Source: Sulfuritalea sp. | Lineage (GTDB): Bacteria > Pseudomonadota > Gammaproteobacteria > Burkholderiales > Rhodocyclaceae | Reading direction: 5' to 3' | Assembly: GCA_044344175.1 (NCBI GenBank) | Contig: JBIJDJ010000001.1 | Coordinates: 114 to 64,113 of the forward strand | DNA: 64,000 nt | Shown: piece by piece, positions 13,190-58,535 of the stretch | Position numbering within the stretch: the stretch's first letter is position 1 | How the letters are laid out: every line of letters starts with the position of its first letter | Made by a program: the position numbers and the translations under genes | Notes under the pieces: generated by a model | The model's database searches: none | Seen by the model: the letters and a program-made list of their open reading frames with translations, nothing else | What the model was told of the DNA's origin: nothing

Positions 13190-14557
13190 CTACTTGCCCT
13201 TCAGTGCATCGCTCTTGGCGGCGAGCTTTTCTTCGAGGTAGTGAATGCTGGTGCCGCCCTTGATGAAGCGCGGGTCCAGCATCAGGTCCTGGTGCAGCGG
13301 GATATTGGTCTTGATGCCATCCACCATCATTTCCGACAGGGCGATCCGCATCCGCTTGATGGCCTGTTCACGGGTGTCGCCGTAAGCAATCACTTTGCCG
13401 ATCATCGAGTCGTAGTGGGGCGGCACGGTGTAGCCGGAGTAGGCGTGGGAATCGACGCGAATGCCCGGGCCCCCGGGGGGGTGCCAGTTGGTGATCTTGC
13501 CGGGTGACGGCGTGAACTTGAAGGGGTCCTCGGCATTGATGCGGCACTCGACCGCGTGGCCGCGGAATTCGATGTCGCGCTGCTTGAACCAGAGCTTCTC
13601 ACCGGCGGCGATGCGGATCTGCGCCTGGACAATGTCGATGCCGGTGATCAGTTCGGTGACCGGGTGCTCGACCTGGACGCGGGTGTTCATCTCGATGAAA
13701 TAGAACTCGCCGTTTTCAAAGAGGAACTCGAAGGTGCCGGCGCCGCGGTAATTGATGCGGCGGCAGGCCTCGGCGCAGCGGTCGCCGACGCGGGCGATGA
13801 CGCGGCGGTTGATGTCGGGCGCCGGGGCTTCCTCGATCACCTTTTGGTGGCGGCGCTGCATCGAGCAGTCGCGCTCGCCCAGGTAGACCGAGTTGCGATG
13901 GGCGTCGGACAGCACCTGGATTTCCACGTGACGCGGATTTTCGAGGAACTTCTCCATGTACACCGTGGAGTTGTTGAAGGCGGCACCAGCCTCGGCGCGG
14001 GTCATGTTGACCGCGTTGAGCAGCGCGGCTTCGGTGTGCACCACACGCATACCGCGCCCGCCGCCGCCGCCGGCGGCCTTGATGATCACCGGATAGCCGA
14101 CGGCGCGGCCGATCTTGACGATTTCCTTCGGGTCATCAGGCAGCGCGCCTTCGGAACCGGGGACGCAGGGCACCCCGGCTTCACGCATGGCATTCTTGGC
14201 GCTGACCTTGTCGCCCATCAGGCGGATGGTTTCCGGGCGCGGACCGATGAAGGCAAAGCCCGACTTTTCGACCCGCTCGCCGAAATCGGCATTTTCCGAG
14301 AGGAAGCCGTAGCCGGGGTGGATGGCCTCGGCATCGGTGACTTCGGCCGCGGAAATGATCGCGGGGATGTTGAGGTAACTCTGCGCCGACGGCGCCGGCC
14401 CGATGCAGACCGATTCGTCGGCGAGCTTGACGTATTTCGCTTCGGTATCGGCTTCGGAATGCACGGCAACCGTGCGTACGCCAAGCTCGCGGCAGGCACG
14501 CAGGATGCGCAGGGCTATCTCCCCGCGATTGGCGATAAGAACCTTACCGAACATCAT
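13190..14557 (-). CDS. accC: acetyl-CoA carboxylase biotin carboxylase
   Basis: [17 protein letters not shown] and [10 protein letters not shown]; start at 14557 or 14554. Confidence 0.96.
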
Positions 14558-14665
14558 GCCTCCGCAGGGCCGCCCCAAGGGGGCATGCGTTGTTGAACCG
14601 GACGCAGCAAAGCTGCGGAACCATCGCCACCCCTTTCCTCGGGAAAGGGGATGGGGGATAGGTCT
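14558..14665 (+). repeat. family-1 structured repeat, copy A (accB-accC junction, antisense to the genes)
   Basis: GGCCGCCCCAAG motif, GCAGC-AAA-GCTGC hairpin, CCCCTTTCC-TCG-GGAAAGGGG hairpin and G-rich tail; homologous to copies at 33.3, 34.0 and 56.9 kb. Confidence 0.75.
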
Positions 14666-14671
14666 TCATGC

Positions 14672-15130
14672 TCAGCCGATCACGAACATGGGCTGTCCGT
14701 ACTCCACGGCCTGGCCGTTTTCAACCTGGATGGCCTTGATCACGCCGGAAATGTCGGCTTCGATCTCGTTCATCAGTTTCATCGCCTCGATGACGCACAG
14801 GGTGTCGCCGGCCTTGACGGTCTGACCGACCTCGACGAAGGGCGAGGCGTCCGGGCTGCTGGCGCGATAGAAGGTGCCCACCATCGGCGCTTTCATGATG
14901 TGGCCCTCGAACTGGACAGGAACGACCTCCGCAGCAGAAGTCGGCGCCGGCGCCACGGCGAGCGGGCCGGTCGCCGCGGCCGTCAGCGGCATGTTGACTG
15001 TGGTGGTGGCCGGCGCCGCCGTGAAATGCTTGGCGATGCGGATTTTTTCTTCGCCTTCGCTGATCTCGAGCTCCGAAATGCCGGAGTTCTGCACGAGGTC
15101 GATCAGGGTCTTGAGCTTTCTCAGGTCCAT
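14672..15130 (-). CDS. accB: biotin carboxyl carrier protein
   Basis: [13 protein letters not shown] and [10 protein letters not shown] biotinylation motif. Confidence 0.96.
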
Positions 15131-15184
15131 GGGGACTCCTAAAACGAGGAAACAGCGGCCGTGGCCGCCGCAATTTCAGATGGG

Positions 15185-15673
15185 TCAGGCGACGCGCAAG
15201 CGCGCCAATGCCGCTTCCAGAGCCAGTTCGTAGCCTTGCGCGCCAAGACCGGAGATAACGCCGACGGCGATATCCGAAAAATACGAGTGACGGCGGAAGG
15301 TTTCCCGCGCCTGCACATTCGACAGATGGACTTCTATGAACGGTATGGCGACGGCCGCCAATGCATCGCGCAAGGCAACACTGGTATGGGTATACCCCGC
15401 CGGGTTGATGATGATGAAGCGCACGCCCTGTTCGCGGGCTGACTGCACCCGATCGATCAGTTCGCCTTCGTGGTTGCTCTGGAAACTCTCGAGCCGGATG
15501 CCGAAGGCACGGGCGCGTGCTTCCATGGCGGTGTGAATCGTGGCGAGCGTGGTGCGGCCATAAATCTCCGGCTCGCGGGTCCCCAGCAGGTTCAGATTCG
15601 GGCCGTGGAGTACCAGAACAGCATCGTTCGACCCTTGGCCGGCATTTGCTTTAGTGCGTGTTTGCTTCGTCAT
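15185..15673 (-). CDS. aroQ: type II 3-dehydroquinate dehydratase
   Basis: [13 protein letters not shown] and EVHLSN. Confidence 0.95.
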
Positions 15674-15711
15674 GGGTGCAAGTTTGCCGCAAATGACCGC
15701 ACTTTGTCCAG

Positions 15712-16251
15712 TTACCGTGAAATCAGTTCAGTCAGTTGCCGTTCCAGTTCAGGCTCGGACAAGCGTCCCAGTTTGGTTGCAGAGAGACTGCCTTCACGGT
15801 CAAACACTGCCGTGAAAGGCAATGCCTGGCGGACGTTGCCCAGCTTGGCGCTGTTCTCCATGATGCTGATGTCACCGATCAACAAGGGATAAGTCACCGG
15901 GGTTGTTTTCTGAAATTCGATGATTTTGTCTACAGTATCGATGCTGATGCCTACAAATTGAACGCCTTTGTCGCGATATTTGTCCTGCAGGCGGGAAAAC
16001 CCGGGCATCTCCTCGCGGCAGGGATGACACCAAGTAGCCCAATAGTTGACGATCAGCACTTTGCCGCGCCATTGGCCGAAGCTTTGCGTTTTCCCGGTCA
16101 GATCGGCTAGTGCCAGTTCAAAAATCGGCAGTGCCGGGGCCGTCGTGGTTGCAGTCCTGGCACTTTTTCCTACTACACCAAGTTGATAGCCGGCCACTGC
16201 GGCAAGCAGGGTGATGCCGCCGAGCGCCGGCCAGAGTATGGAACGCTTCAT
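15712..16251 (-). CDS. TlpA-family thiol:disulfide oxidoreductase
   Basis: N-terminal anchor; [15 protein letters not shown]. Confidence 0.9.
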
Positions 16252-16853
16252 TTGGATGTTTCGCGCAGCAGTTCGAGCACAGCCTCGGCGCGGACTCGTT
16301 GGCGACTGCGTCCGCCATGGGAATTCTTCGGTTGCTGACGCTCGGCGACCGGAGGGTATACCGAGATCAATACCGGAAAATCATTCCAGTCCAGACGTAA
16401 CTGGGAATCAGCGCCAATTCGCCGGTTATCCATCGTATCGTAGGAGATGCCGTGAGATAACAGCGCAATCTCTACATCTTTACTGCTGTCAGCATATAAA
16501 TCCAGCTCCACGGCGGAGTAGCGACCGGCGGTGCCATCCAGCGCACCACCGGTGAGGTAGGGATGGAATTCGGCCAGCAACTGCATCACTTCAAGGGCTG
16601 TCGCCCGCAAGTCATGGACGCGCTCACCCTGCTCGTCTTCCTGGTAGAGCGATTGCCAGGCGCGCAGCTCGATCTCGACCTCTTCGTTGGTCGGCAGCGC
16701 TGCTCCTTCCGCGGCACCCAGGCTGCGCGCCGCCTTGCGTTTCGCGGCCCCGTAGTCGCTGATCCCTTCTTCCGCCATGAGGCGTGCCGCCGCGCCGGCG
16801 ATGGCGCGACGCAGGTGGCTGGAGGCTGAAGGGGCAAGCTTGCGGCGTGGCAT
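16248..16853 (-). CDS. conserved hypothetical protein, possible nucleotidyltransferase-like fold
   Basis: AARLMAEEGISDYGAAKRKAA and LTGGALDGTAGRYSAVELDLY; ATGA overlap with tlpA. Confidence 0.7.
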   Translation of the reverse strand: MPRRKLAPSASSHLRRAIAGAAARLMAEEGISDYGAAKRKAARSLGAAEGAALPTNEEVEIELRAWQSLYQEDEQGERVHDLRATALEVMQLLAEFHPYLTGGALDGTAGRYSAVELDLYADSSKDVEIALLSHGISYDTMDNRRIGADSQLRLDWNDFPVLISVYPPVAERQQPKNSHGGRSRQRVRAEAVLELLRETSK

Positions 16854-16971
16854 GGCGCGGATTGGCGTAGTTCGGCAAATGCGGCTGGCGGTTGTTTGCG
16901 GCGCCTTCAGGGTGGCGGACGGTATCCCCTGGCGGGATAGAATCCGCTTCATTATTTCACGGAACGGCGAC

Positions 16972-18330
16972 ATGCATATCCACATCCTCGGCATTTGCGG
17001 CACTTTCATGGGCGGTATCGCCCTGTTGGCGCGTGCCGCGGGACATCGCGTTACCGGCTGCGACGCCAATGTCTATCCGCCGATGAGCATCCAACTCGGC
17101 GCACAGGGCATCGACCTGGTCGAAGGTTATGGTTCCGACCAGGTCGCGCTGAACCCGGATCTGTTTGTCATCGGCAACGCCATATCACGCGGCAATCCCT
17201 TGCTGGAAGCCATTCTTGAGCGCAATCTGCCCTATGTTTCCGGCCCGCAATGGCTGGCGGGGAACATTCTGCGCGGCCGCTGGGTGCTTGGCGTGGCGGG
17301 AACGCACGGCAAGACGACCACTACGTCGCTTCTGGCGTGGATTCTTGAAGAGGCTGGGTTGGCTCCGTCTTTTCTGGTCGGCGGAGTGCCGCAAGGCTTC
17401 GGCGTTTCGGCCCGATTGACCGATTCGCCCTTCTTCGTCATCGAGGCCGACGAGTACGATAGCGCCTTCTGCGACAAGCGCTCCAAGTTCGTGCATTACC
17501 AGCCACGGACGGTGATCCTGAACAATCTGGAGTTCGATCATGCCGACATCTTCGTCGATCTTGCTGCTATCGAGACCCAATTCCATCATTTGGTGAGAAC
17601 TTTGCCGGGGAATGGCCTGATTGTCGCCAATGCTCGGGAGGAGTCGTTGCGGCGCGTGCTGTCCCGTGGCTGCTGGACTCCCGTTGAATGGTTCAATGGG
17701 GCGGAGGGTTGGCAGGCCGGCGAGTCCGACGCTTCGGGAGGCTTTGAAGTAAGCCTGGCCGGCAAGTCCCAGGGCCGGGTGAATCGCTTCGACCTGGCGG
17801 GCGCCCACAACCGGGCCAATGCCGTGGCGGCGCTGGCGGCCGCGAGGCATGCCGGCGTCCCGGTGGCTGTCGGCCTCAAGGCACTGGAAAGCTTCAGCGG
17901 CATCAAGCGGCGACTGGAGACGCGCGGCACCGTGCGCGGGGTCACCGTCCTCGACGATTTCGCCCACCATCCGACGGCAATCCGCGTCACGCTGGAAGGC
18001 CTGCGCCAGAAGCTTGGATCTGCCCGCATTCTGGCGGTGCTGGAGCCGCGTTCCAACACCATGAAACTCGGCGTGATGAACGAGCAATTGCCCGGCAGCC
18101 TGGTCGAGGCCGATGCGGTGTTCTGTTATGCCAACCAGCTGGGTTGGGATGCCGCGCAGGCTTTGGCGCCGCTGGGCGAGCGGGCGCGGGTTTTCGCCGA
18201 CCTGGGCGAATTGGTCGCCGCCGTGGCTGCAGCCGCATACAGCGGGGATCACGTGCTGGTGATGAGCAATGGAGGTTTTGGCGGGGTTCATGACAAGCTG
18301 CTGGCCGCGCTGGCGGCCCGATCCTCATAG
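16972..18330 (+). CDS. mpl: murein tripeptide ligase
   Basis: MHIHILGICGTFMGG, GTHGKTTT and DDFAHHPTAI. Confidence 0.95.
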   Translation: MHIHILGICGTFMGGIALLARAAGHRVTGCDANVYPPMSIQLGAQGIDLVEGYGSDQVALNPDLFVIGNAISRGNPLLEAILERNLPYVSGPQWLAGNILRGRWVLGVAGTHGKTTTTSLLAWILEEAGLAPSFLVGGVPQGFGVSARLTDSPFFVIEADEYDSAFCDKRSKFVHYQPRTVILNNLEFDHADIFVDLAAIETQFHHLVRTLPGNGLIVANAREESLRRVLSRGCWTPVEWFNGAEGWQAGESDASGGFEVSLAGKSQGRVNRFDLAGAHNRANAVAALAAARHAGVPVAVGLKALESFSGIKRRLETRGTVRGVTVLDDFAHHPTAIRVTLEGLRQKLGSARILAVLEPRSNTMKLGVMNEQLPGSLVEADAVFCYANQLGWDAAQALAPLGERARVFADLGELVAAVAAAAYSGDHVLVMSNGGFGGVHDKLLAALAARSS

Positions 18331-18463
18331 GTAAGTGGAATTCACTACCCGCTCCTTGCGCCCTGCAAGAAGACATCCGTTACCGAGAAAAAGCCGGCAG
18401 GCGTGAGGCATGCCACCCGATTGTGCAATGCACATCGTTTATACCAATAATTTCACATCTAAA

Positions 18464-18477
18464 TTGATTCAGATCAA
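18464..18477. promoter_or_regulatory. FNR/Anr-family binding box upstream of the cox operon
   Basis: perfect TTGAT-TCAG-ATCAA in AT-rich intergenic DNA. Confidence 0.8.
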
Positions 18478-18616
18478 AAGGACTGTGTTAACCTTCGGGC
18501 CTGTTGAGAAACAGGAACGGGGTTCGCGCGGGTTCTTTTTGGCAGATATTCGAACACGCCAGCAACTCGCGCCAACGCTTTGCCGCGTGGCGCGCAACTG
18601 GCGCGGAGGGGGAGAG

Positions 18617-19786
18617 ATGGTACGACACACAAATCACAATGGTGACGCCGGCCGCTTGCCGTTCGGCCCTGCGGGACTGATGCTGGCGGGATTGCTCGGC
18701 CTGTTCAGCAGCGCAGTGAACGCCGCCTGGGAACTCAATCTGCAGATGCCAGTTACCGCCCTGGCGCGCCGTGTCTACGACCTGCACACCCTCCTGACGT
18801 GGGTTATTTTCATCATTTTCGTCGGTGTCTTTGCCGTCGTTACCTGGTCCCTCATTTTTCATCGCAAGTCCATCGGGCACAAGGCGGCCGATTTTCACGA
18901 CAACACCGCGGTCGAGATTGCTTGGACCATCGTGCCGACGCTGGTCCTGATCGCCATCGCCTTCCCGGCGACCTCGACCCTGGTGGAAATGCGCGACAGC
19001 TCACAGCCCGACCTGACGATCAAGGCTACCGGATACCAGTGGAAGTGGGGTTACGAGTACGTCACCGGCGATGCCGCCGGGGTCAAGTTCATGAGCGTGC
19101 TGTCCACGCCCCGCGAGCAGATCGAAAACAAGACACCCAAGGGCGAGCATTATCTGCTGGAGGTCGATCACCCGCTGGTGGTGCCGGTCGGCAAGAAGGT
19201 GCGCATGCTGCTCACGGCCACCGATGTGATTCACAACTGGTCGGTGCCGGCATTTGCGGTCAAGACCGATGCGGTGCCGGGGTTCCTGCGCGACACCTGG
19301 TTCCGTGCCGAGAAGGAAGGCACCTACCGCGGTCAGTGCTCGGAACTCTGCGGCAAGGACCACGGTTTCATGCCGGTGGTGGTCGAGGTGGTATCCGCTG
19401 AGAAGTACGCGGCCTGGGTTGCGGAACAAAAGAAGACAATGGCTGCAAGCGCCGACGATCCCGCCAAGGTCTGGAAGATGGATGAGCTGATGGCTCGTGG
19501 TGAAAAGGTCTATACCGCCAACTGTGCGGCCTGCCACCAGCCGACCGGCGCCGGTCTGCCGCCCGTATTCCCCGCGCTCGACGGTTCGAAGATCGCGAGG
19601 GGGCCGAAGGCGGCTCACCTCGATATCGTCATGAAGGGCAAGCCGGGCACTGCGATGGCAGCCTTTGGCACCCAGTTGAGCGACACCGACATTGCGGCCG
19701 TTGTAGCCTACGAACGCAACGCTTGGACCAACAAGCTCGGCGAGCTGATTCAACCCGCCGAAGTCAAGGCACTTCGCGGCAAGTAA
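18617..19786 (+). CDS. coxB: cytochrome c oxidase subunit II with C-terminal cytochrome c domain
   Basis: CuA motif DVIH...CSELCGKDHGFM; CAACH heme c motif; GGAGAG RBS. Confidence 0.93.
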   Translation: MVRHTNHNGDAGRLPFGPAGLMLAGLLGLFSSAVNAAWELNLQMPVTALARRVYDLHTLLTWVIFIIFVGVFAVVTWSLIFHRKSIGHKAADFHDNTAVEIAWTIVPTLVLIAIAFPATSTLVEMRDSSQPDLTIKATGYQWKWGYEYVTGDAAGVKFMSVLSTPREQIENKTPKGEHYLLEVDHPLVVPVGKKVRMLLTATDVIHNWSVPAFAVKTDAVPGFLRDTWFRAEKEGTYRGQCSELCGKDHGFMPVVVEVVSAEKYAAWVAEQKKTMAASADDPAKVWKMDELMARGEKVYTANCAACHQPTGAGLPPVFPALDGSKIARGPKAAHLDIVMKGKPGTAMAAFGTQLSDTDIAAVVAYERNAWTNKLGELIQPAEVKALRGK

Positions 19787-19817
19787 TCGCGCCACCGGCC
19801 TTCAGGAGAATCTGATT

Positions 19818-22140: not shown

Positions 22141-22143
22141 TCG

Positions 22144-22353: not shown

Positions 22354-22415
22354 TGACGGGACGCATGAACAAGGCAATCGGGCAATAACGACAAGATGAT
22401 TTCAAGGAGGTCAAG

Positions 22416-23270: not shown

Positions 23271-23315
23271 GCCCCGGTTTCGCGGTGTGCGTGGCGTGCG
23301 CCGCGAGTTCTTGAA

Positions 23316-31904: not shown

Positions 31905-33298
31905 TGAAGCAAAGCAAATTGAAGGCCCCCCACCCCCACCCCCATCCCCGCCCCCGGGCGGGGCTACTGGCCAGTTCGCTTCGCTCGATTATCGTGGGGC
32001 GCTCACGAGCTCGTTTCACGTTGATCTGTCTGCTGACGTCACTGGCATCGAGCCTGGCCCTGGCCGGCGTAAAGATCGAGCACTGGACGGCGCCCACCGG
32101 GGCCCAGGTGTATTTCATCGAGACCCGGATGCTGCCCATCCTCGACGTGCAGATCGATTTTGCCGGCGGCGGCGCCTTCGTTCCGGCCGGAAAGTCGGGT
32201 CTTGCCGGCCTGACCCGCAGCCTGCTGGAAGCGGGCGCCGGCGACATGGATGAGGAAAAGATTGCCGGACGCGTAGTCGACCTTGGCGCACGCCTGGGCG
32301 GCGGTGCCGACAGCGACCGCGCCAGCATCAGCCTGCGCACGCTTTCCTCAAAAACTGAACGCGAAGGCGCGCTGGACCTGATGCGCACCGTGTTGTCAGC
32401 GCCGACTTTTCCGCAAGCGGTGCTGGAGCGCGAAAAGGACCGCACCATTGCCAGCATCCGCGAGGCCGAAACGCGGCCCGATGCGATCGCCGGCAAGCGC
32501 TTCGCGGCCGCCATCTATCCCGGCCATCCGTATGGCGTCAGCCCGACCGTGAACAGCGTCGGCGCCATCACGCGCGACGATCTCGTCGCTTTTCACAGCA
32601 GGCACTATGGCGCGAAAGGTGCCGTGGTCTCGATCATCGGCGATGTTTCCCGCGCCGAGGCGGAGGCGATCGCCCGGCGCCTGACCGAAGCACTGCCGCC
32701 CGGCGGCGCAGAAATGGTGCCGCCACCGGTCAGGAAGCCGCAGCGCGAGACGATCAAGATTGCCCATCCGGCCGCGCAAAGCCACGTGCATGTCGGCCTG
32801 CCGGCGATCAGCCGTAGCGACCCCGACTATTTCCCGCTGCTGGTGGGCAACTACACGCTTGGCGGCGGCGGCTTCGTTTCGCGCCTGATGAAGGAGGTCC
32901 GCGAAAAGCGCGGCTATGCCTACAGCGTGTATTCCTACTTCGCTCCGCGCAAGCTCGAAGGCCCCTTCGAAATCGGGCTGCAGACCAAACGCGAGCAGGT
33001 TGATGATGCGCTCAAGGTGGTCGACCAGGTGTTGACCGAATACATCGCAAAAGGCCCGACGCCGCAGGAACTTGCGGCAGCGAAGAAGAACATGGTCGAT
33101 GGCCTGGCGCTGCGCATGGACAGCAATGCCAAGTTGCTCGGCTATCTTTCGGCGATCGGCTTCTACGGCCTGCCGCTGACCTACCTCGACGATTTTCCGG
33201 GCAAGGTCAAAGCCGTCACCGCCGCGCAGGTCAAGGCCGCCTTTGCCCGTCACGTGAAGGCGGAAAATTTGGTCACTGTGGTGGTTGCGGCGGACTGA
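31904..33298 (+). CDS. M16 family peptidase-like protein (non-catalytic partner)
   Basis: no HxxEH; SRLMKEVREKRGYAYSV; repeat-like N-terminal extension. Confidence 0.9.
   Translation: MKQSKLKAPHPHPHPRPRAGLLASSLRSIIVGRSRARFTLICLLTSLASSLALAGVKIEHWTAPTGAQVYFIETRMLPILDVQIDFAGGGAFVPAGKSGLAGLTRSLLEAGAGDMDEEKIAGRVVDLGARLGGGADSDRASISLRTLSSKTEREGALDLMRTVLSAPTFPQAVLEREKDRTIASIREAETRPDAIAGKRFAAAIYPGHPYGVSPTVNSVGAITRDDLVAFHSRHYGAKGAVVSIIGDVSRAEAEAIARRLTEALPPGGAEMVPPPVRKPQRETIKIAHPAAQSHVHVGLPAISRSDPDYFPLLVGNYTLGGGGFVSRLMKEVREKRGYAYSVYSYFAPRKLEGPFEIGLQTKREQVDDALKVVDQVLTEYIAKGPTPQELAAAKKNMVDGLALRMDSNAKLLGYLSAIGFYGLPLTYLDDFPGKVKAVTAAQVKAAFARHVKAENLVTVVVAAD
31922..32010 (-). repeat. divergent family-1-like repeat, copy E, inside the 5' end of the second M16 gene
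   Basis: reverse strand GAGCGAAGCGAAC, CCCCGCCC/GGGCGGGG hairpin and G-rich tail. Confidence 0.45.
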
Positions 33299-33319
33299 CG
33301 CCGGGTCGGGGCCGTGAGC

Positions 33320-33501
33320 GCTGCCCGCAGGGCCGCCCCAAGGGCGGCGCCGCCAGGTTACGGAGCTGCGCAGCAGCGAATCGCCGTCACCCCCTGCCTT
33401 GGGGCGAAGGCAGGGTTTCGCGGAGCACTGCTCGGCGCTGCCCTAGCCGGCCGGCTATGCAGAGCCGGCAGTGGGGTCGGGGTTGGGGGGAGGGTAGTCC
33501 G
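33320..33501 (+). repeat. family-1 structured repeat, copy B, with nested hairpin
   Basis: CCGCAGGGCCGCCCCAAGGG shared with copy A; CGGAGCTGCGCAGC and GTCACCCCC shared with copy C; GAGGGTAGT tail. Confidence 0.78.
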
Positions 33502-34035
33502 GTGAGCCGCATCCGCATCACCGGCGGCGAATGGTGCAGCCGCCTGGTCCATGTACCCGATGCGCCCGGATTGCGACCGACCCCGGACCGGGTGCGCGAG
33601 ACCCTGTTCAACTGGCTGGGGCAGGAACTCGACGGGCTTGCCTGCCTTGATCTCTTCGCCGGCAGTGGAATTCTCGGTTTCGAAGCGGCCTCGCGTGGCG
33701 CGGACTACGTTGCTTTGGTGGAGCGTTCGCAGCCGGCATTCGCGGCGCTGAAAACGCATGCCGATGGCTTCGCCTGTCCGCGACTGGAACTGTTTTGCTG
33801 CGATGCGCTAAAATTCGACCCCCCATCCGGTCGGCGCTTCGATGTGCTGTTTCTTGATCCACCCTATGGGCAAGGCTGGCTGGGCCGGGTAGAGTCCCGC
33901 CTGGAGCAACTGGCCGCGCCGGGCGCGAGGCTGTACGCGGAGGCCGAGATGCCGCTGGAAAAATTGGGTCGCTGGACGGTGACGAAGCAGGGACGGGCTG
34001 GCCAGGTTTTCTTTCACCTGCTGGAGCAGGCATGA
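33502..34035 (+). CDS. rsmD: 16S rRNA m2G966 methyltransferase
   Basis: LRPTPDRVRETLFNWL, DLFAGSG and FLDPPY. Confidence 0.94.
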   Translation: MSRIRITGGEWCSRLVHVPDAPGLRPTPDRVRETLFNWLGQELDGLACLDLFAGSGILGFEAASRGADYVALVERSQPAFAALKTHADGFACPRLELFCCDALKFDPPSGRRFDVLFLDPPYGQGWLGRVESRLEQLAAPGARLYAEAEMPLEKLGRWTVTKQGRAGQVFFHLLEQA

Positions 34036-34037
34036 GC

Positions 34038-34141
34038 CCCGCACGGCCGCCCGAAGGGGCTCCAGCCAATGCACGGAGCTGCGCAGCGGCGAACCGTTGT
34101 CACCCCCTCCCGTGGGGAGGGGGCTGGGAGGAGGGTAGTTA
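34038..34141 (+). repeat. family-1 structured repeat, copy C (rsmD-coaD junction)
   Basis: GGCCGCCCGAAG, CGGAGCTGCGCAGC, CCCCCTCCC-GTG-GGGAGGGGG hairpin and GAGGGTAGT tail. Confidence 0.8.
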
Positions 34142-34633
34142 GTGAGCAAGAGCATTGCGGTTTATCCGGGGACCTTCGATCCCCTGACCAGCGGTCACGA
34201 GGATCTCGTGCGGCGCGCTTCGACCCTGTTCGAGCGGGTCATCATCGGCATCGCCGAGAGTCGCACCAAACAACCCCTGTTTTCGCTGGCAGAGCGGGTC
34301 GTCATCGCCCGCGAGGTGCTGACAGGTTATGCCAATGTCGAAATTCATGGCTTCGATTGCCTGCTCATGGATTTCATGCGCCAGCACGGCGCCAGCGTCA
34401 TCATGCGCGGCCTGCGCGCCGCATCGGATTTCGAATATGAATTCCAGATGGCGGGCATGAACCGCAATCTTTACCCCGATGTCGAAACCGTATTCCTCAC
34501 GCCGTCGGATCAGTACATGTTCGTCTCGGCAACGATAGTGCGGGAAATCGCATCGCTCGGCGGCGATGTCTCCAAGTTTGTTCCGCCGCTGGTCCAGAAA
34601 CGACTGGCCGATAAGATTCAGCACCGCAACTGA
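34142..34633 (+). CDS. coaD: pantetheine-phosphate adenylyltransferase
   Basis: [12 protein letters not shown] and [12 protein letters not shown]. Confidence 0.96.
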
Positions 34634-37555: not shown

Positions 37556-38079
37556 GAGTCGGGTTGGTTTTCCTTGTCGTGTTATTGCTGGCAGCCTGCG
37601 CCGAACTCCCGCAGCAATCCGCAGCCTCGCTGGTTCTCGGTCCGCCCTTGCAGCGCTTTACTGCCGAGGGGCGCATTTCGCTGCGCCAGGGCGATCGCCG
37701 TGATCATTTGCGTTTTAGCTGGGAACACGCTCCGGGCAGCGATGTCGTGTTGCTCATGTCGCCGCTGGGGCAGGGTCTGGCCGAGCTGACGCGCGATGCG
37801 TCCGGCGTGCGACTGGTGCAACCGAATCAGGCAACCATCCGCGCCGATACCCTGCCGCAACTGGCGCAGCGCGCATTCGGCGCGCCGGTGCCGCTGGACA
37901 CCATGGCCGAATGGCTGCGCGGCGCACAGCCCGCCCTGAGCGGCGAGATCGACGGCTGGCGCGTGGTGATCAGCGATACCTCGGCGTTCCGCCAGCGCCG
38001 ACTTTTGCGGGTCATGGAAGCCCGCCGCGATGATGTCGAATTCAAGCTCATCGTTGATGACTGGAATGCGCCGGAATGA
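37552..38079 (+). CDS. lolB: outer-membrane lipoprotein insertase LolB
   Basis: lipobox LAAC, SPLGQ and WLRG; precedes ispE. Confidence 0.85.
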   Translation: MRVGLVFLVVLLLAACAELPQQSAASLVLGPPLQRFTAEGRISLRQGDRRDHLRFSWEHAPGSDVVLLMSPLGQGLAELTRDASGVRLVQPNQATIRADTLPQLAQRAFGAPVPLDTMAEWLRGAQPALSGEIDGWRVVISDTSAFRQRRLLRVMEARRDDVEFKLIVDDWNAPE

Positions 38080-38084
38080 ACCTA

Positions 38085-38238
38085 AAAAACCCGGTTGAAC
38101 CACAGAGGCACAGAGATCACAGAGGAAACAAGTGGTCGCCGCGTTTCTGGCACCCAGCTGTTGGGCGATCGTTACTGGATCGACAACCCATGATTCCCCG
38201 CCTTTCTCTGTGCCTCTGTGCCTCTGTGGTGAGGAATT
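38085..38238. mobile_element. family-2 (CACAGAG)3/(CTCTGTG)3 inverted-repeat element, copy 1
   Basis: ends nearly identical to the copy at 57.5 kb; unrelated 75-nt core. Confidence 0.8.
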
Positions 38239-38242
38239 CAGG

Positions 38243-39079
38243 TTGAACGATTGGGACCGCAACTGGCCGGCGCCGGCCAAGATCAACCTGTTTCTGCATG
38301 TCGTCGGACGCCGGGCCGACGGCTATCATCTGCTGCAAACCCTGTTCCGTTTCCTCGATTTCGCCGACACGATCCGCTGCGAGCCACGCAGCGACGGCCG
38401 CATCCTGCTGGCAAACCCGCTGCCCGGCGTGCCGCCCGCGGCGGATCTCACCGTCCGCGCGGCCGAGGCGCTGCGTGCGGTGACTGGCGCCACAGCGGGA
38501 GTGACCCTGCGTGTCGAAAAGCGCCTGCCCATGGGCGGCGGTCTGGGTGGCGGCAGTTCGGATGCGGCGACAACGCTGATGGCGCTGAATCGCCTGTGGC
38601 ACACCGGTCTCGATTCACTTCAGTTGCAGCGGACAGGGCTTGCCCTGGGCGCTGACGTACCTGTCTTCATCCATGGCCGTACAGCCTTCGCAGAAGGAGT
38701 GGGTGAGCACTTCACTGACGTCACCTTGCCTGCGGCCTGGTATCTGGTGCTGGTGCCCGATGTTGCCGTGCCGACAGTTGAAATCTTTCGTTCCACGGAG
38801 TTGCGCCGCGACACGCCGGCCATCGCAGCGGCCGATTGGCGTCCGGGTTCCGGGCACAATGACCTCGAGCCCGTGGCCTGTGCACTCTATCCCGAGGTGG
38901 CCCGCCATCTGGAATGGTTGCGGCAACATGGTGACGCGCGCCTGAGCGGTTCCGGCGCCTGCTGTTTTGTCGGGTTTGCCCGCGAGGCAGCGGCGAGAAC
39001 GGCATTGGCCGCATTACCAGCCGACATGCGGGGCTTTGTTGCCGCCGGATTGGACCGGCATCCGCTCGTCCTGATTTGA
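38243..39079 (+). CDS. ispE: 4-diphosphocytidyl-2-C-methyl-D-erythritol kinase
   Basis: PAPAKINLFL, PMGGGLGGGSSDAA and LSGSGA; TTG start after GAGGA. Confidence 0.94.
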   Translation: MNDWDRNWPAPAKINLFLHVVGRRADGYHLLQTLFRFLDFADTIRCEPRSDGRILLANPLPGVPPAADLTVRAAEALRAVTGATAGVTLRVEKRLPMGGGLGGGSSDAATTLMALNRLWHTGLDSLQLQRTGLALGADVPVFIHGRTAFAEGVGEHFTDVTLPAAWYLVLVPDVAVPTVEIFRSTELRRDTPAIAAADWRPGSGHNDLEPVACALYPEVARHLEWLRQHGDARLSGSGACCFVGFAREAAARTALAALPADMRGFVAAGLDRHPLVLI

Positions 39080-50416: not shown

Positions 50417-50417
50417 G

Positions 50418-51517: not shown

Positions 51518-51532
51518 GCAGAAGCTTCCTCG

Positions 51533-52243
51533 CTATGACAAGGCGTCCGCCGGCAGATTATCCGGAAGTGCGCTGCGCAGAACGTATGTGAGCAAACCGC
51601 GGTGAGGAGAACTGATTGCTGCCCGCCAAAGAATGTGCGAGCCAAACAGCAAGTCGTCTATGTCGCGACGATCCGTCTCGCTGTGAAATTCGATATAGGC
51701 AATGCGTGTCTTTTCCAGAAAAGAGCGGGTGCGGGTCAGAATCGGGAGTTCGCAGCCTTCGGTATCCAGCTTGAGAATGTCGATGTCGCGCCCCTGTAGT
51801 ATCTCCTGGAATGCGGAATACGCATCACGCAGCGGAATGGCAATCCGTTCGTCCGATGAATAGTTGTGGTGGAACAGGGATGCCGTGGCCATTCCCTCGC
51901 ACCCGAGGAACATCGTTGCCGTTTCGTCGCATGAGTGGAGCCCGAAGGGATGAACCATGCAATTTCCTATGCGCTGAGCATTGACCTGCAGGTAACTCAG
52001 CGCTGCCGGCGCCGGCTCGAAACAGTGAATTTCCGCATCGGGGCAGGAAAGGCGGAGGTAGGCGGCGGTCAGGCCCACGTTGGCGCCTACATCCACGATG
52101 ACCCTGGCGTCGTGGACGGGTAGCACGGGCAGGTAACAGCGTTCAGTGAATATTTCCAGGACGAGGAAATCCGTCTGCTTGTCGTCCGGCACGGCAAGCG
52201 ACAGGGTCGAAGCGCCGTTGTTCTGGATGTTCAAGGTGGCCAT
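51533..52243 (-). CDS. FkbM-family methyltransferase
   Basis: VDVGANVG, FEP and LKLDTEGCE. Confidence 0.88.
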   Translation of the reverse strand: MATLNIQNNGASTLSLAVPDDKQTDFLVLEIFTERCYLPVLPVHDARVIVDVGANVGLTAAYLRLSCPDAEIHCFEPAPAALSYLQVNAQRIGNCMVHPFGLHSCDETATMFLGCEGMATASLFHHNYSSDERIAIPLRDAYSAFQEILQGRDIDILKLDTEGCELPILTRTRSFLEKTRIAYIEFHSETDRRDIDDLLFGSHILWRAAISSPHRGLLTYVLRSALPDNLPADALS

Positions 52244-52252
52244 CGCGCCGGC

Positions 52253-53113
52253 CTATCGCCTCACGATCGTATCGTTGTTGTCCGGGCCGCGCTTTGGCAT
52301 TCCGATGTCGTGAACCAGCGCGTAACCCGGCCATTCGACCCGGTCGGTAGTCCGGCACAGCGTTACCGGAATCCCGCGCGCGGCCATTTCCGAATTGATG
52401 CCGTCAAAGATCAAGTCGCCGTAAGTATCCATCATCTGCGTATGGCAGAGGCAGGCCTTGTTGAACCCGAGCAGGACGCATGCGAGATCCCTGCCCTCGT
52501 TGTCGAGAAAGGCAAACATCGCACGTGCCAACTGGGGATACAACCCGTTGAATATGTCATCGATCACGATCAATCCGGTGTGTTCCATGAGGCGCCGCGC
52601 CAGGACCAGATCTGCGCGCAGACCGGCGGCAGTGTGCTCGCCATCGACATGGATGTACCGGTAGCGCCGGGCCGGTGGAATCGCCAGCGCCGCTTCCCGC
52701 GCCGTGCCTGAAAAAAGGGTGATGCCGTGCTGTTGAACGCGTTCGCCCAGGACGGCCGCCAAACTTTTTTTCACGTCCTCCTGTCGCGGCCATGAATCGA
52801 GGAGCCACATGTCTTCAGCGGTTCGCAGATGCCGGGCCATGAGAGCAGCGGAGCGACCTTTCCAGACACCGATTTCAAGCAGACCCGTGCCAGGCAGATT
52901 GGCCTTGTCCTGACCGGCCAGAAAGTAGTCCATGAGCGCAGCGGATTCGCGGGACAACCAGCCTTCGATTGCGTCGATCCGCGGCCAGTCGATACAAAAG
53001 TCGTGGGAAGTAAGCATGCAAGGCTCCGGGTTGGGAAACTCAGGAAACGAGGCGACGACCAGGACCGGAAGCGACGGTTCGGCAGGCGATATGTATGCGC
53101 GCCATGGCTTCAA
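52253..53113 (-). CDS. class I SAM-dependent methyltransferase (Methyltransf_24-like)
   Basis: IEGW, LEIGVWKGRS, IHVDGEH and GLIVIDD; start may be the internal MLTSH. Confidence 0.82.
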   Translation of the reverse strand: MKPWRAYISPAEPSLPVLVVASFPEFPNPEPCMLTSHDFCIDWPRIDAIEGWLSRESAALMDYFLAGQDKANLPGTGLLEIGVWKGRSAALMARHLRTAEDMWLLDSWPRQEDVKKSLAAVLGERVQQHGITLFSGTAREAALAIPPARRYRYIHVDGEHTAAGLRADLVLARRLMEHTGLIVIDDIFNGLYPQLARAMFAFLDNEGRDLACVLLGFNKACLCHTQMMDTYGDLIFDGINSEMAARGIPVTLCRTTDRVEWPGYALVHDIGMPKRGPDNNDTIVRR

Positions 53114-53961
53114 ATTCTTTCTATGTAGCGGGCCGCGATGTCTATTGAGTAGACCATTTTTCGATTCAGGTGCCAGTGCTCTATAAGGCCGTTGATGGGC
53201 GGCGGTTTGATCAACTGTCCAGGCAGGTTGATCTCGACAACGGCGGTCGGTTGCCCGGTCTCCGCAGCCTGCCGGACGATGCGCCTGACTTCGCCATACA
53301 AGCTTTGCCGAGTCTCGAGCGGGAGCGGGCCGCCCACCAGGCGGACCAGATCCAGCTTGGCCTGCATATAGAGCATGTTGATGCGGTGCTGCAAAGCGCG
53401 GTCCTTGATCTCGTGGAAGCGCACCCGCGCCGCATCGTCGTGCGGGATTTCCTCGATCAATGAGGCGGAATACGCGGCAGAAATCCGCCCCAGTAGCGCA
53501 AGTCGCGTCATGAGGTCGTCGTCCTCGCCTCCCCAGCCAACGAAGGCCTCATCGTAGCCGCCGACGGTCTCGAAATCCTCTCGACGGCAGATGAACGAGC
53601 CCCAGTTCTGCGGCGTTACGGGCTGGGCGCGGTAGAAGTGACCCGCTTGCAGGCCCGGTATCACCTTGTTTGCAAGGTCCGGCGCCCAAAGGATATCTGC
53701 ATCGAAAAATGCCAGCCAGGGGGAATCTGCGACGCGGGCGCCGAGATTGCGAGCCCGCGCCGCATTGAAACCCGCCTCGCCGGTCACCCGGACCACGGTG
53801 ACTTGGGGGAAATTGGCGACGACCCAATCGGCGGTGTTCTCCGGGCAGCCATAGTCGACCACGACGCAGGCGACGCCGGGCTGATCGACTACGCGTGGCA
53901 ATGTCTGCTTCAGGTGGGCGAGCCGTCCCTTGCACGTGGTGATGTAACAAAGCGCCGCCAT
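53110..53961 (-). CDS. GT2-like glycosyltransferase with galactosyltransferase C-terminal motif
   Basis: TTCKGRLAHL, VVDY, ARNLG, FFDAD and GGYDEAFVGWGGEDDD. Confidence 0.85.
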   Translation of the reverse strand: MAALCYITTCKGRLAHLKQTLPRVVDQPGVACVVVDYGCPENTADWVVANFPQVTVVRVTGEAGFNAARARNLGARVADSPWLAFFDADILWAPDLANKVIPGLQAGHFYRAQPVTPQNWGSFICRREDFETVGGYDEAFVGWGGEDDDLMTRLALLGRISAAYSASLIEEIPHDDAARVRFHEIKDRALQHRINMLYMQAKLDLVRLVGGPLPLETRQSLYGEVRRIVRQAAETGQPTAVVEINLPGQLIKPPPINGLIEHWHLNRKMVYSIDIAARYIERI

Positions 53962-53969
53962 CTATCCGC

Positions 53970-55034
53970 TCACTCCCGCCACAATTCGGCGCTGCCGCCG
54001 GTGCCTGGCACCGACAGCCCGAAGTGTCGCCAGATGCTCGCCGTCGCCACGCGTCCTCGAGGCGTGCGCTGCAGGTAGCCCTGCTGGATCAGGTAGGGTT
54101 CCAGCACGTCCTCAATGGTGTCGCGCGCCTCGCCGATGGCAGCGGCGAGGTTGTCCACCCCGACCGGGCCGCCGCCGAATTTTTCCAGCATCGCGCCGAG
54201 CAGTTTCCTGTCCATCACGTCGAGGCCGAGATGATCGACGTCGAGCATGGTCAGCGCCGCATCGGCTACCGCGCGCGTGATTTTTCCGTCGGCCTTGACC
54301 TCGGCGAAATCCCGCACGCGGCGCAGCAGGCGGTTGGAAATGCGCGGCGTACCGCGCGAACGTTTGGCGATCTCCACCGCACCTTCTTCAACAATGTCGC
54401 AATTCAGCAGATGGGCCGAGCGGCGCACGATGAGGCTGAGTTCTTCCGGGGTGTAGAACTCCAGCCTGGCGACGATGCCGAAGCGGTCGCGCAGCGGGTT
54501 GGTCAGCATGCCGGCGCGCGTCGTGGCGCCGATCAGGGTGAAGGGCGGCAGGTCGAGCTTGACCGAGCGCGCCGAGGGACCTTCGCCGATCATGATGTCG
54601 ATCTGGAAATCCTCCAGCGCGGGGTAGAGGATTTCTTCGACCACGGGAGAGAGACGATGGATCTCGTCGATGAACAGCACGTCGTGCGGTTCGAGGTTGG
54701 TCAGCATGGCGGCCAGATCGCCGGCGCGCTCCAGCACCGGGCCCGAGGTATGGCGCAGATTGACGCCCATCTCGTGGGCAATGATGTGCGCCAGGGTGGT
54801 CTTGCCCAGACCCGGCGGGCCGAACAGCAGCACATGGTCCATCGATTCGGCGCGCCGCTTGGCCGCCTCGATGAAGATTTCGAGCTGGCCGCGGATTTTC
54901 TGCTGGCCGACGTAATCCGCCAGCCGCTTGGGCCGCAGCGCGCGCTCGAGCACGTCTTCCTGCGTCGACTCCCTGCCGGCTGAAATCAGGCGCTCGGGTG
55001 CGGGCTCGGCGAACTTGTCGGTCTGGATGCTCAT
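53970..55034 (-). CDS. ruvB: Holliday junction helicase RuvB
   Basis: [14 protein letters not shown] and SRGTPRI. Confidence 0.97.
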
Positions 55035-55057
55035 GTGTCGAGTTTAGCCGAGGCGCG

Positions 55058-55654
55058 TCAGGAGGATTTGGAAAGCAGCTTCAAGGCCGCGCGTATGCCG
55101 TCGGAAACGGAAATTTCGGCAGGCAGGCCCTTCATGGCGGTCAGCGCCTCGCGTTCGTTGTAACCGAGCGCCAGCAGGGCGTTCATGATGTCGGACAGGG
55201 CGTCGCTCGCCGTGTCGCCGGCGCCGACTTTTGTGGCTCCGGTCGCCAGCGTCTTCGGCAGCCGGTCGCGCAGTTCCAGCAACAGGCGTTCGGCGGTTTT
55301 CTTGCCGATGCCCGGCACCTTGGTCAGGCGTCCGGCTTCCTGCAGCGTCACCGCCTGCGCCAGTTCCGTCACCGACATGCCCGAGAGCACGGCCAGTGCG
55401 GTTCGCGCGCCGATGCCGGAGATCTTCAGCAACTGGCGGAAGGCAGTGCGCTCGTCCGGCGAGGCAAAGCCGTACAGGTAGTGGCCGTCCTCGCGCACGA
55501 TCAGGTGCGTGTGCAGCGACACTTTCTCGCCGGTGGCCGGCAGGTTATAGAAGGTGCTCATCGGCACATCGACTTCGTAGCCGAGTCCGTGGACATCGAC
55601 GGTGATCGACGGCGGGTTCTTTTCGAGGAGCATTCCGGTGATGCGGCCGATCAT
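55058..55654 (-). CDS. ruvA: Holliday junction branch migration protein RuvA
   Basis: [26 protein letters not shown] and ALLALGY. Confidence 0.97.
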
Positions 55655-56985
55655 GACAGTTCTCCGATACCTGCAGCCGGATGGTTGGGATCCAGAAGTT
55701 CTTCAATACGCCGGACAAGATTGCGAATGATCTGTGACTGATCGAAGGCGGCGTACTTGGCGGCAAAGGCTCGTGCGTTGTCGCGATATCCTGCTTTGTT
55801 AAACAGGCTCGCCAATGAGCCGGCAAGATCGCCGGGCGGTAGTTCGGGGTTAACCAGGATACCGGCACCCATATCTACAACGCGCCGCGCCACCATGAAT
55901 TGTTCCAGATGTCCGGGCAGCATTAGCAAGGGCTTTCCTCCGAGCAGGAAGGCTGTGGTGGTTGCGAGGCTGGCATAGGTAATTGCGACATCAGCTTCCC
56001 GGACCATCTGTTCCATATCAGCCGGTTCATCCAGAAATCTGAGATGAGGGGCAGCAAACCGTTCGACCGTGGCCGGTGGCAGACCGGGAGCGAAAACAAG
56101 TGCCGAAATCTCGAGAGAGCGCAAAGCGGCCAGTGCTGCTTCGTGGTGTGGCGATTCCGGGCGCAGATAGGCAAAACAGCGCCCTTGGCCAACGCTTGGC
56201 CATTTCGCCGGTTTCCCCGTGCCAGCACTCGGCAGGCTGCCCCAATAGCTGGCGGGCCCCCGATCAGGGTAGTGATCCAATTCGGGAAAAGTCACCATGG
56301 TTTCCTCGGCAACATCGAAAAGATTGGCGAGACTCGGCAGCGTTTGACAGTCGAACCGAGTCAGTACGGCATTGATGCTGGTCAGCGCCGCCCGGTCAAT
56401 TTCCTGAATTTGCTGCTCTGGAATCGGTGCCCACGGCCTCATGTTGGGAAGCGGGTTGCGTTTGGGTGGAACAGTAAATCCAAATGAGTACTGCATGACC
56501 GGTATTGACAGCGTTCGGGCTGCAAGCAGGGCCGTGGGCGAGTGATCCGCAAGGATCAGGCTTGCTCCGGTTAGTCGCATCATTTCCCGCCAAGCGCCAA
56601 CCAGACCAAACAAGGTTTTTGGGTCCGCGTAGCCGAAGCGCAGAAGTATATCTGCATAGGTTAGTGGCGGTCCCGGACGGCTGGCCTCCGTGGTTGAGGG
56701 CGCGGCCAGCCAGGTGAAGCCATTCTTGGCCAGAAAATCCCCCACGGCCGCGGGTTGGGTGACTGCCCAGTGCACCTCATGACCTGCTTGCCTCAACTCT
56801 CGCGCCAAGGGCATGAACGGGCCTACATGACCCAGGTTCGCGCCGAATTCCCATGCATAAAGAATGGAGTGCCTTCCCCCCTTCCCCCTTCCCTCGGAAG
56901 GGGGTGACGTCGGTTCGGCCGCTGTGTGGCCTCCGGGCGATTGGCTATGCCGCGCTTGGGGCGGCCCGACGCTTGGCACGGCCAT
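55651..56985 (-). CDS. GT-B glycosyltransferase (GT1/GT28-like) with repeat-derived N-terminus
   Basis: [23 protein letters not shown] and [13 protein letters not shown]; TGATG and ATGA overlaps with ruvC and ruvA. Confidence 0.82.
56870..56982 (-). repeat. family-1 structured repeat, copy D, forming the first ~39 codons of the GT gene
   Basis: minus strand GGCCGCCCCAAG..AGCCAAT..CGGAG..GAACCG..GTCACCCCCTTCC-GAG-GGAAGGGGG aligns with copy C. Confidence 0.8.
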
Positions 56986-57530
56986 CAGATCAGTCTCCCG
57001 CCCTTGACCCGGCGTCCGGCAGTGGCCAGCGTACCCATGCCCTGCCCGCCGTGGGCATGCGCAATCGCGCAGGCCAGCGCATCGGCGGCATCGGGACTCG
57101 GATTGCCGGGAAGGGCGAGCAGGCGGGCGACCATGGCCTGCACCTGCTCCTTCGCCGCCTTGCCGTGACCGACCACGGCCTGCTTGACTTGCAGCGCGCT
57201 GTATTCGGCCACCGGCAGGTTCGCCGTGACCAGCGCGGCAATCGCCGCGCCGCGCGCCTGGCCCAGCAGCAGCGTGGATTGCGGGTTGACGTTGACGAAG
57301 ACGATTTCGACCGCGGCCTGCTGCGGAGAGTAGGTAGCGATGATCTCCACCAGTCCGTCGAGGATGGTCTTGATCCGTTCCGGCAGGCTGCCCGCCGCAT
57401 CGGTCTTGATGCAGCCGCTGGCAACATAGGCCAGCTTGTTGCCGGCCTTGTCGACGACCCCAAACCCGGTCGAGCGCAAGCCCGGATCAATGCCGAGGAT
57501 GCGGATGGGTGTCGAGGTCGGGGGTTTCAT
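56985..57530 (-). CDS. ruvC: crossover junction endodeoxyribonuclease
   Basis: [14 protein letters not shown] and DAADALACA. Confidence 0.96.
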
Positions 57531-57533
57531 GCG

Positions 57534-57669
57534 AAAAACTCGGTTGAACCACAGAGGCACAGAGATCACAGAGAAAAGCGTAGGTGCAAATTGGGTAAAG
57601 GCCGGCCAATCTACAAGACGCAGATTTCTTGCCTTTCTCTGTGCCTCTGTGTCTCTGTGGTGAGGAATT
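57534..57669. mobile_element. family-2 (CACAGAG)3/(CTCTGTG)3 inverted-repeat element, copy 2
   Basis: 33-nt left arm identical to copy 1 and 39-nt right arm with 1 mismatch; unrelated 57-nt core. Confidence 0.8.
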
Positions 57670-57674
57670 TGAAT

Positions 57675-58535
57675 TCATTTCCGCGCAAGATACACGCCCC
57701 ACACGGCGAGCGCCATGCCCGCCAGTGCCATGCCGGCGAGCCGTTCGTCGAACAGGAACCAGGCGATCAGCGCGGTGCTGGGCGGCACCAAGTAGAACAG
57801 GCTGGCGAGATTCACCGCCGTGCCGCGCCGGATCAGCATGTTGAGCAGCGAAATGGCCCCCAGGGAGAGCACCAGCACCAGCCAGCCCAGAGCGAATATG
57901 AAGTCGGGCACCCACTCGACGCGGTAGTTGCCGCTGAGGCCGACAACGATGCCCGTGGCCACGGCGCTGGGCAGGAACTGGGCGATGGCGCCGGTGCGCC
58001 AGTCGAAGCTGGGGCAGAAGCGTTTCTGGTAAAGGGTGCCGGCGGTGATGCCGGCCAGTGCCGCCAGCGCCGGCCACAGCGCATCGAGGCCATAGCCGCT
58101 GCCCAGCTTGCCCGAAACCACCATGGCGACGCCGACAAAGCCGAGCACCAGGCCGAGCCATTGCCGCTTCAGCACCGCTTCGTTCAACAGCCAGCCGGCG
58201 CCGACGGCGGTCAACAGCGGCTGGATGCCGACCACCAGACTGGCCACCCCGGCCGGGAGGCCCTTCGAGATCGACATGAAGACGCCACCGAGATAAATGC
58301 CGTGCACCAGCAGGCCGGCGACACCGATGTGGAACCACTGCCGTGCGTCCCGCGGCCACGGTGCGCGCGTCGCCAGTGCGATCAGCGTCATCAGCGAAAG
58401 CACCAGCAGGTAGCGCACCAGCAGGAAGGAGAGCGGCTCGGCATGCGGCAGGCCATACTTGGCGCCGATAAAGCCGGTGCTCCAGAGCAGGACGAAGAGC
58501 AGCGGGGCGAAGCGGGTCGCGGCGGACGAGGTCAC
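57675..58535 (-). CDS. DMT/EamA family transporter
   Basis: LWSTGFIGAK, about 10 TM helices, YLVPP. Confidence 0.9.
   Translation of the reverse strand: MTSSAATRFAPLLFVLLWSTGFIGAKYGLPHAEPLSFLLVRYLLVLSLMTLIALATRAPWPRDARQWFHIGVAGLLVHGIYLGGVFMSISKGLPAGVASLVVGIQPLLTAVGAGWLLNEAVLKRQWLGLVLGFVGVAMVVSGKLGSGYGLDALWPALAALAGITAGTLYQKRFCPSFDWRTGAIAQFLPSAVATGIVVGLSGNYRVEWVPDFIFALGWLVLVLSLGAISLLNMLIRRGTAVNLASLFYLVPPSTALIAWFLFDERLAGMALAGMALAVWGVYLARK

Follow-up and report, generated by a model that had tools for sequence, protein, structure and literature searches.

Short open frames across two families of gene-less repeats may relay ribosomes through Sulfuritalea operons

How can hairpin-forming repeats persist between the genes of housekeeping operons, at junctions where most relatives have the two genes overlapping or nearly so? 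The question is raised by a 64,000-nucleotide (nt) stretch of Sulfuritalea sp. DNA (assembly GCA_044344175.1, contig JBIJDJ010000001.1, positions 114 to 64,113 of the forward strand; "the window" below), in which copies of two repeat families, here called A and B, stand ahead of rsmD and at the rsmD/coaD, lolB/ispE, accB/accC and DMT/ruvC junctions. A first-pass annotation had described five short open reading frames (ORFs), (a) to (e), that run through such repeats from an upstream stop codon to a downstream start, and had proposed that the repeats persist because ribosomes are relayed across them. All five translate exactly as it gave them, and (a) to (d) do connect their flanking genes, but (e) overshoots the ruvC start by 44 nt. 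The explanation developed here, which we consider probable, is that these are gene-less and likely mobile repeats which enter stop-start overlaps or short spacers and are likely retained when they have a stop-free frame that would relay ribosomes over their hairpins. The copies in the window and their ORFs (lengths in amino acids, aa) are as follows:

14554..14668, minus strand: reverse-lineage family A element in the accB/accC junction, with GGAGG at its end ahead of the accC start
14544..14669, minus strand: putative relay ORF (d), 41 aa, its TAA lying inside accC and formed by codon 3 (GGT) with codon 4
33315..33501, plus strand: forward-lineage family A element ahead of rsmD, in the long form that contains an additional module (the hidden Markov model covers 33315-33414)
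33314..33505, plus strand: putative relay ORF (c), 63 aa, ending in a GTGA overlap with rsmD
34037..34140, plus strand: family A element, forward lineage, rsmD/coaD junction (nhmmer bounds)
34032..34142, plus strand: putative relay ORF (a), 36 aa, beginning in the ATGA of the rsmD stop, its TAG sharing 1 nt with the coaD GTG
38082..38243, plus strand: family B element with inverted arms of CACAGAG-type units, lolB/ispE junction, one long stem (folding z -4.1)
38076..38246, plus strand: putative relay ORF (b), 56 aa, beginning in the ATGA of the lolB stop and ending in the TTGA of the ispE start
57532..57673, minus strand: family B element, DMT/ruvC junction
57487..57678, minus strand: ORF (e), 63 aa, passing the ruvC ATG (57530) by 44 nt and so no bridge
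56864..56975, minus strand: a fourth family A copy, missed by the first-pass annotation, its ATG overlapping the ruvC stop (TGATG)

Relative to the downstream start, the five ORFs end at +1 (a), +4 (b), +4 (c), +11 (d) and +44 (e).

Both families were defined by profile searches (nhmmer bounds are given for the window copies) and are scattered through the assembly that holds the window (G000; 3.03 Mb, 62.8% GC, 87% complete). Family A is a GC-rich unit of about 110 nt with several hairpins, whose two ends differ and carry no terminal inverted repeats; a longer form has an extra module of about 70 nt. Its 53 near-full-length copies in G000 lie between co-directional genes (45), inside called genes (6) or between divergent genes (2), and never between convergent ones. 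Family B, 90-170 nt long and 50% GC, has terminal inverted repeats, namely arms built of CACAGAG-type units on either side of a variable core, and its 54 copies are placed between co-directional (44), convergent (7) and divergent (1) genes, with two at contig edges. Folding z-scores for the elements of (a) and (d) are -1.7 and -2.5.

Do these copies carry bridging frames more often than GC-rich DNA of their length would by chance? A bridge was scored when an ORF starts -8 to +15 nt from the upstream stop and stops -12 to +14 nt from the downstream start, and two copies per family with spacers longer than 260 nt were left out. By this measure 34 of the 43 co-directional family A copies in G000 bridge (the remainder being four in-frame fusions, one overshoot and four without a bridge), as do 18 of 42 family B copies, whereas element-free co-directional spacers of 80-230 nt do so in 54 of 437 cases, or 22 of 144 when their GC content is at least 62%. 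Shuffling the interior with both ends and the length held fixed gives an expectation of 22.7 bridges for family A, whose count was reached in none of 200,000 simulations, and of 7.3 for family B (P ~1e-5). Deleting 1-2 nt gives expected counts of 5.7 and 7.3, and inverting the interior leaves 16 and 10 bridges, respectively. Other genomes behave alike: in G002, of which the comparison covered 2.4 of 3.8 Mb, 22 of 30 family A copies bridge against 50 of 325 controls (shuffle expectation 17.2, P 0.009), and in G016 the counts are 8/11 for family A and 7/13 for family B. Public sequences (118 loci with 120 copies, 80 of them scorable) add 59 bridging copies, where shuffling predicts 42.7 and frameshifting 7.5; among the 80 records listed, the hosts are nearly all Rhodocyclales (e.g. 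Sulfuritalea) or betaproteobacteria. After removal of orthologous duplicates, 137 of 153 family A junctions were kept and 100 of these bridge. The excess over chance, which the first-pass annotation had set as the test of its idea, is therefore real in both families, but its description of two bridging families holds for most family A copies and for fewer than half of those of family B.

That the repeats are insertions is seen directly in empty and filled alleles of the same junctions. The rsmD and coaD genes overlap by ATGA in 17 of 18 same-genus loci, the eighteenth having the same insert as the window (one further locus, from another family, was not scorable), and in 15 relatives the junction upstream of rsmD is a spacer of only 2-15 nt. 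At lolB/ispE 22 of 30 loci have an overlap of -4 or -8, seven are filled (the window's included), and one, L031, has a 15-nt in-frame remnant that resembles a deleted family A copy and gives IspE a short N-terminal extension. Of the relatives with a match, 20 of 43 were fetched for DMT/ruvC and 20 of 45 for accB/accC; at the former junction 15 of the 19 scorable relatives show the ATGA overlap, and at the latter 12 of the 20 are empty, with 2 nt between the genes. Among 85 element sites of G000, 57 have an ortholog in the covered part of G002, where 32 are empty (18 of them overlaps) and 25 are filled or long, several by a different family. Long G002 inserts at three such sites were considered as possible autonomous elements and rejected, one being a repeat with a toxin-antitoxin pair and two being ordinary genes. 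Near position 3,655,850 of G002, where G000 has a family A copy, a family-B-like palindrome is followed by an antitoxin and PIN-toxin-like pair.

Comparison of filled and empty alleles also shows where the ORFs come from. [quoted passage not shown] Repeated bases are found in one of three family B pairs. The downstream start has the form xTGA at 97 of 125 family A copies, compared with 1283 of 2789 genes. There are hints that family A prefers tight junctions: the upstream stop lies no more than 12 nt from where the copy begins in 135 of 153 cases, against a background in which 814 of 2057 co-directional junctions measure 15 nt at most.

What these inserts conserve is the frame, not the peptide sequence. 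Of the 79 family A junctions in the deduplicated set with xTGA at both ends, 69 have a length that keeps the frame, and the same holds for 16 of the 26 distinct lengths (p 0.003); frame-keeping lengths range from 73 to 202 nt, with most copies at 109-118 nt. In family B the count is 10 of 16. Stop codons number 8 in the relay frame of family A and 28-47 in each of the other five frames. Among 50 nearest-neighbor pairs of family A copies, 22 had indels of non-triplet length, of which 16 netted to zero, and in all 14 pairs with exactly two such indels the two cancel. The copy containing ORF (b), which is shared with two relatives, is set apart from theirs by two indels, of 2 nt and of 1 nt, that net to 3; orthologous pairs with G016 (15 shared sites) have few indels. 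Substitutions fall almost evenly on the three codon positions (93/112/113), the crude ratio of non-synonymous to synonymous differences (pN/pS) is 0.62, and the peptides switch frame internally between copies. The first-pass proposal that the elements persist since an open frame spans them is well supported at the level of sequence by the one-frame stop depletion, by the frame-keeping lengths and indels and by the independent inserts described next.

Different inserts at one junction reach the same arrangement. All seven filled lolB/ispE alleles, which represent at least three independent elements, bridge, and all eight filled accB/accC alleles among the relatives bridge with their stop at +11; three of the eight are family A, and five (L402, L407, L412, L415 and L416) belong to another insert family that repeats about the first 11 codons of accC and adds a hairpin. 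Three alleles of this other family are two-unit tandems, bridged in two steps from one unit to the other. The relay stop at accB/accC is present only when accC codon 3 is GGT, a synonymous codon; all 10 filled alleles, with G000 and G002 counted, have GGT, against 3 of the 12 that are empty, an association that is inflated by kinship, and it may simply be that an insertion here needs a GGT background to survive. Of the four filled relatives at DMT/ruvC, three have a bridge, two of them relying on an uncertain TTG start; a third repeat family also bridges at this junction (L418 and L426).

Bridging in both orientations, another part of the first-pass description, is observed, but it stems from a split of family A into two lineages, each true to its own orientation. 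In a tree built from 154 copies of the family (few columns, rough support) the orientation relative to the operon changes 8 times, compared with about 50 in shuffles, which points to two orientation-keeping lineages; forward and reverse lineages are each locked and each open on their own sense strand. Forward-lineage copies are mostly on the leading strand, and replication strand may be the cause of orientation in that lineage. For the reverse lineage this cause is rejected, since in G002 each replichore has such copies on either strand.

Family A is also found within proteins. Six copies in G000 lie in frame inside called genes (C159:9548, C159:36032, C245:24075, C127:8171, C90:17617 and C99:5861), adding about 30-40 residues to hosts that we read as an HrpA-like helicase, MurE, a ROK kinase, MiaB, a NUDIX hydrolase and a thioredoxin-domain protein, and an insert-free ortholog exists for five of them. 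The fourth copy in the window is an in-frame N-terminal extension of a 444-aa ORF (56985-55651) directly after ruvC, read as glycosyltransferase-like. Family A insertion is therefore not limited to junctions, and such copies are expected if being read through is the condition for survival.

The sequence of events that would account for these patterns is as follows. Elements, which have TGA at both ends, would most likely be copied into xTGA sites, and copies that break translation of the operon would be purged. Where the frame is open, a terminating ribosome would reinitiate at the old start codon, pass through the hairpins and begin again at the downstream gene, helped in the reverse lineage by a built-in Shine-Dalgarno (SD) sequence. 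We infer that the mini-ORFs are translated, that coupling is thereby kept and polarity avoided, and that survival acts as a selection filter on insertions and on later indels, with successful copies seeding new ones until frame and orientation become fixed in each lineage.

Might the 3' end of the element matter more than its frame? If the repeats were portable ribosome-binding sites that bring an SD to the re-created start, the open frame would serve to clear hairpins or be secondary, and the persistence of non-bridging copies would be natural. Of 53 reverse-lineage copies, 44 do have SD-like 4-mers ahead of the downstream start, compared with 119 of 364 overlapped genes, but there is little or no excess in the forward lineage (25/57), which bridges equally often, or in family B (9/28), and a portable SD leaves the frame-keeping lengths and the one-frame depletion of stops unexplained; we judge this account unlikely. 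A neutral by-product is very unlikely and already largely refuted. In this account duplication of TGA sets a start on the left and a stop on the right, GC-rich DNA is poor in stops and the founder happened to have a fitting length, as the shuffle expectation of over half the family A copies and the narrow length range of most of them would suggest. It does not predict that the frame is kept across the whole span of lengths, that stops are depleted in the relay frame only, that the AT-richer family B exceeds its own null, or that unrelated families converge at the same junctions.

Host-domesticated regulators (attenuator-like leaders) or functional micropeptides would fit the recurrent peptide motifs within lineages and a pN/pS below 1, but the near-even substitutions, the internal frame shifts, the lack of family matches for the peptides and the fact that the same junction is element-free in most relatives make them highly improbable. 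The micropeptide role suggested in the first-pass annotation is accordingly unsupported, and nothing in the present results points to the tuning of downstream expression that it had also suggested. Least credible of all, and barely conceivable to us, is that the hairpins are cut or spliced from the mRNA in the manner of rRNA intervening sequences, restoring the overlap. The single long stem of family B would suit such a process, which would however make conservation of frame needless, and in two RNA-library contigs of one study element (a) is intact with coaD and 28 bases of rsmD; no joint that removes a whole element was found in the covered parts of the RNA runs, a weak negative since it comes from contigs only.

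Several observations weigh against the ribosome-relay explanation. Geometry and GC richness account for part of the pattern, since shuffling with ends and length fixed is enough to expect 22.7 bridges among 43 copies, and 24 of 42 family B copies have no bridge. Copy (e), common to G047 (L419), persists there without bridging; in G002 a family A copy at DMT/ruvC stops short, and so does an independent reverse-lineage copy before rsmD. The indel-pair test uses the same copies with xTGA at both ends and is not independent of the length test. Gene starts come from a gene caller trained on G000 and some are wrong (one miss was seen in the G002 comparison), and kinship among genomes and elements means that the p-values are overstated, the accC value most. 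No mobilizing gene was found for family A.

What might have moved the repeats? A GxxExxY (PF13366) gene is present in 22 of 52 genus genomes, and matches to the family B arm model adjoin such a gene at 16 of 28 loci, with variant arms visible at others; by the names we read from translations, these genes sit with family B-type arms in relatives' operons, among them trpE-trpG, rarA-serS and ribF-ileS. Because the arms flank GxxExxY genes, family B is best read as a gene-less derivative of a GxxExxY nuclease cassette, and the nuclease is a candidate mobilizer of family B. G000 has no GxxExxY or DUF559 match, in an assembly that is 87% complete. The literature search found no published account of repeats flanking GxxExxY genes. 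For family A, there is no small gene between its halves in G000 or in the covered part of G002, except for two housekeeping genes between neighboring copies. A Y1 transposase of the REP/REPIN-RAYT kind was rejected because the sole PF01797 match in G000 has no adjacent family A or B copy. To the eye, the C-rich/G-rich hairpin arms of relatives' DUF559 genes look like family A's 3' hairpin, but a family A model match lies beside only one of 30 loci, at 12 bits, and DUF559 is not claimed as the parent.

Some neighboring observations are recorded here. At L200-L229 DUF559 genes lie amid arrays of C-rich/G-rich hairpins, several in operon junctions, as a second cassette type parallel to GxxExxY. 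Three toxin-antitoxin-like pairs cluster near the lone Y1 transposase gene of G000 (C9:820-2068 and 6240-6852). More small repeat families bridge spacers in G000 and G002, for example an 80-130-nt family with a family A tail, and a G002 variant of family B bridges in 5 of 7 cases.

The first-pass annotation recognized no named system for such repeats, but there is a precedent in MIRUs (mycobacterial interspersed repetitive units) and a second in the short ORFs of integron attC sites. A review describes MIRUs as repeats, apparently mobile, whose insertion at a start codon brings an ORF with -4 coupling, so that harm is likely minimized (PMC12548453). Translational coupling drops steeply with longer overlaps, according to the same review (PMC12548453), which speaks against (e) as a relay. 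The likeness to our elements lies in a small ORF that is co-oriented with and overlaps both flanking genes (in the bridging copies counted above for the two families) and in insertion at a start codon with -4 coupling, as the xTGA at most family A downstream starts indicates. MIRUs are not known to have dyad symmetry, whereas the present elements fold into strong hairpins; they comprise several families, with two orientation-locked lineages, occur in frame inside genes as well, and in family B would derive from a nuclease cassette. Their hosts are betaproteobacteria rather than members of the Mycobacterium phylum, and the sequences look unrelated, judged by appearance. They would thus work like MIRUs without being members, since host and fold differ.

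In integrons, short ORFs (ORF-11) over attC/attI stem-loops relieve a block of downstream translation by termination-reinitiation, and their peptide sequence is of little importance (PMC8876359). Both features recall the present ORFs, but attC sites belong to integrase-driven cassette arrays and our elements are scattered through housekeeping operons. Bacterial miniature inverted-repeat transposable elements (MITEs) and Rickettsia palindromic elements are described, in the portion of the source at hand, as 100-200 bp non-autonomous structured repeats with open frames, between genes and in frame within them, an account of fusions and not of stop-to-start relays (PMC2229807). The present repeats share this size, structure and placement but have no TA termini, their repeated bases being centered on TGA, and family A is GC-rich and has no terminal inverted repeats. 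As for the cognate transposase of a MITE, family B arms flank GxxExxY genes, whose mobilizing role is putative, and family A has no counterpart that we found. Family B likewise resembles the GxxExxY cassette in the arms, or variants of them, that flank such genes in relatives' operons and differs from it in that the G000 copies are gene-less. Relays of this kind outside mycobacteria and integrons were not found in the literature searched, most subscription papers being beyond reach. New here are the orientation-locked lineages of family A, family B as a gene-less GxxExxY form, the in-protein copies of family A and the accC codon that gives the relay stop.

Remaining features of the window can be given briefly. 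The rsmD, coaD, ispE, ruvC, accB and accC products match above the NCBIfam cut-off. The DMT transporter and lolB match below it, lolB scoring 53 bits where 59.6 are required, and the five mini-peptides have no NCBIfam match. The label M16 for the gene ahead of (c) comes from reading its sequence, as NCBIfam gave only a sub-threshold YfmF match. An Rfam search of the window returned one tRNA and nothing else. A short CCACACCCC-type repeat at 31922-31960, at the start of a second M16-like gene, is read as a His/Pro run, and assemblies break at it. Sequencing runs that contain window DNA are mostly lake and freshwater metagenomes.

A 26-nt motif, built on the core AGTCGGCGCYGGC with ACGGCG as a conserved tail, is present at 331 sites in G000. 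Coding sequence holds 199 of these, in several frames; the two strands have equal shares, and close inverted pairs never occur. Window examples lie near 12095, 14939, 25002, 37991, 45254, 49010 and 55217. A 14-mer form is present 14-375 times per genome in 37 genomes of the genus, against 0-3 copies each in 24 from other families, and in G002 the motif is kept at 66 of 80 fully aligned coding sites, most differences being substitutions. We take it to resemble a DNA uptake sequence, and it is possibly a more novel lead than the relay repeats.

What would the repeats mean for the genomes that carry them? A wider view, which we hold only tentatively and think less likely than not to be borne out in full, is that a widespread and so far undescribed class of mobile DNA, with small nuclease cassettes of the GxxExxY type as its autonomous members, actively targets coupled ATGA junctions in the orientation of transcription, acting as a natural non-polar cassette, that its families compete, and that hosts supply or evolve the terminating codons, as at accC codon 3. 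In any case the idea known from MIRUs, of a repeat that hides in an operon by means of a coupling ORF, becomes a quantified and convergent rule over unrelated families, in both orientations and at the same essential junctions, with a candidate mobilizer (GxxExxY) offered for one of the families. The relay ORFs would explain a class of spurious small "hypothetical proteins", and the natural filled, empty, tandem and broken alleles of a single junction form a test series for the limits that coupling and polarity set on genome evolution.

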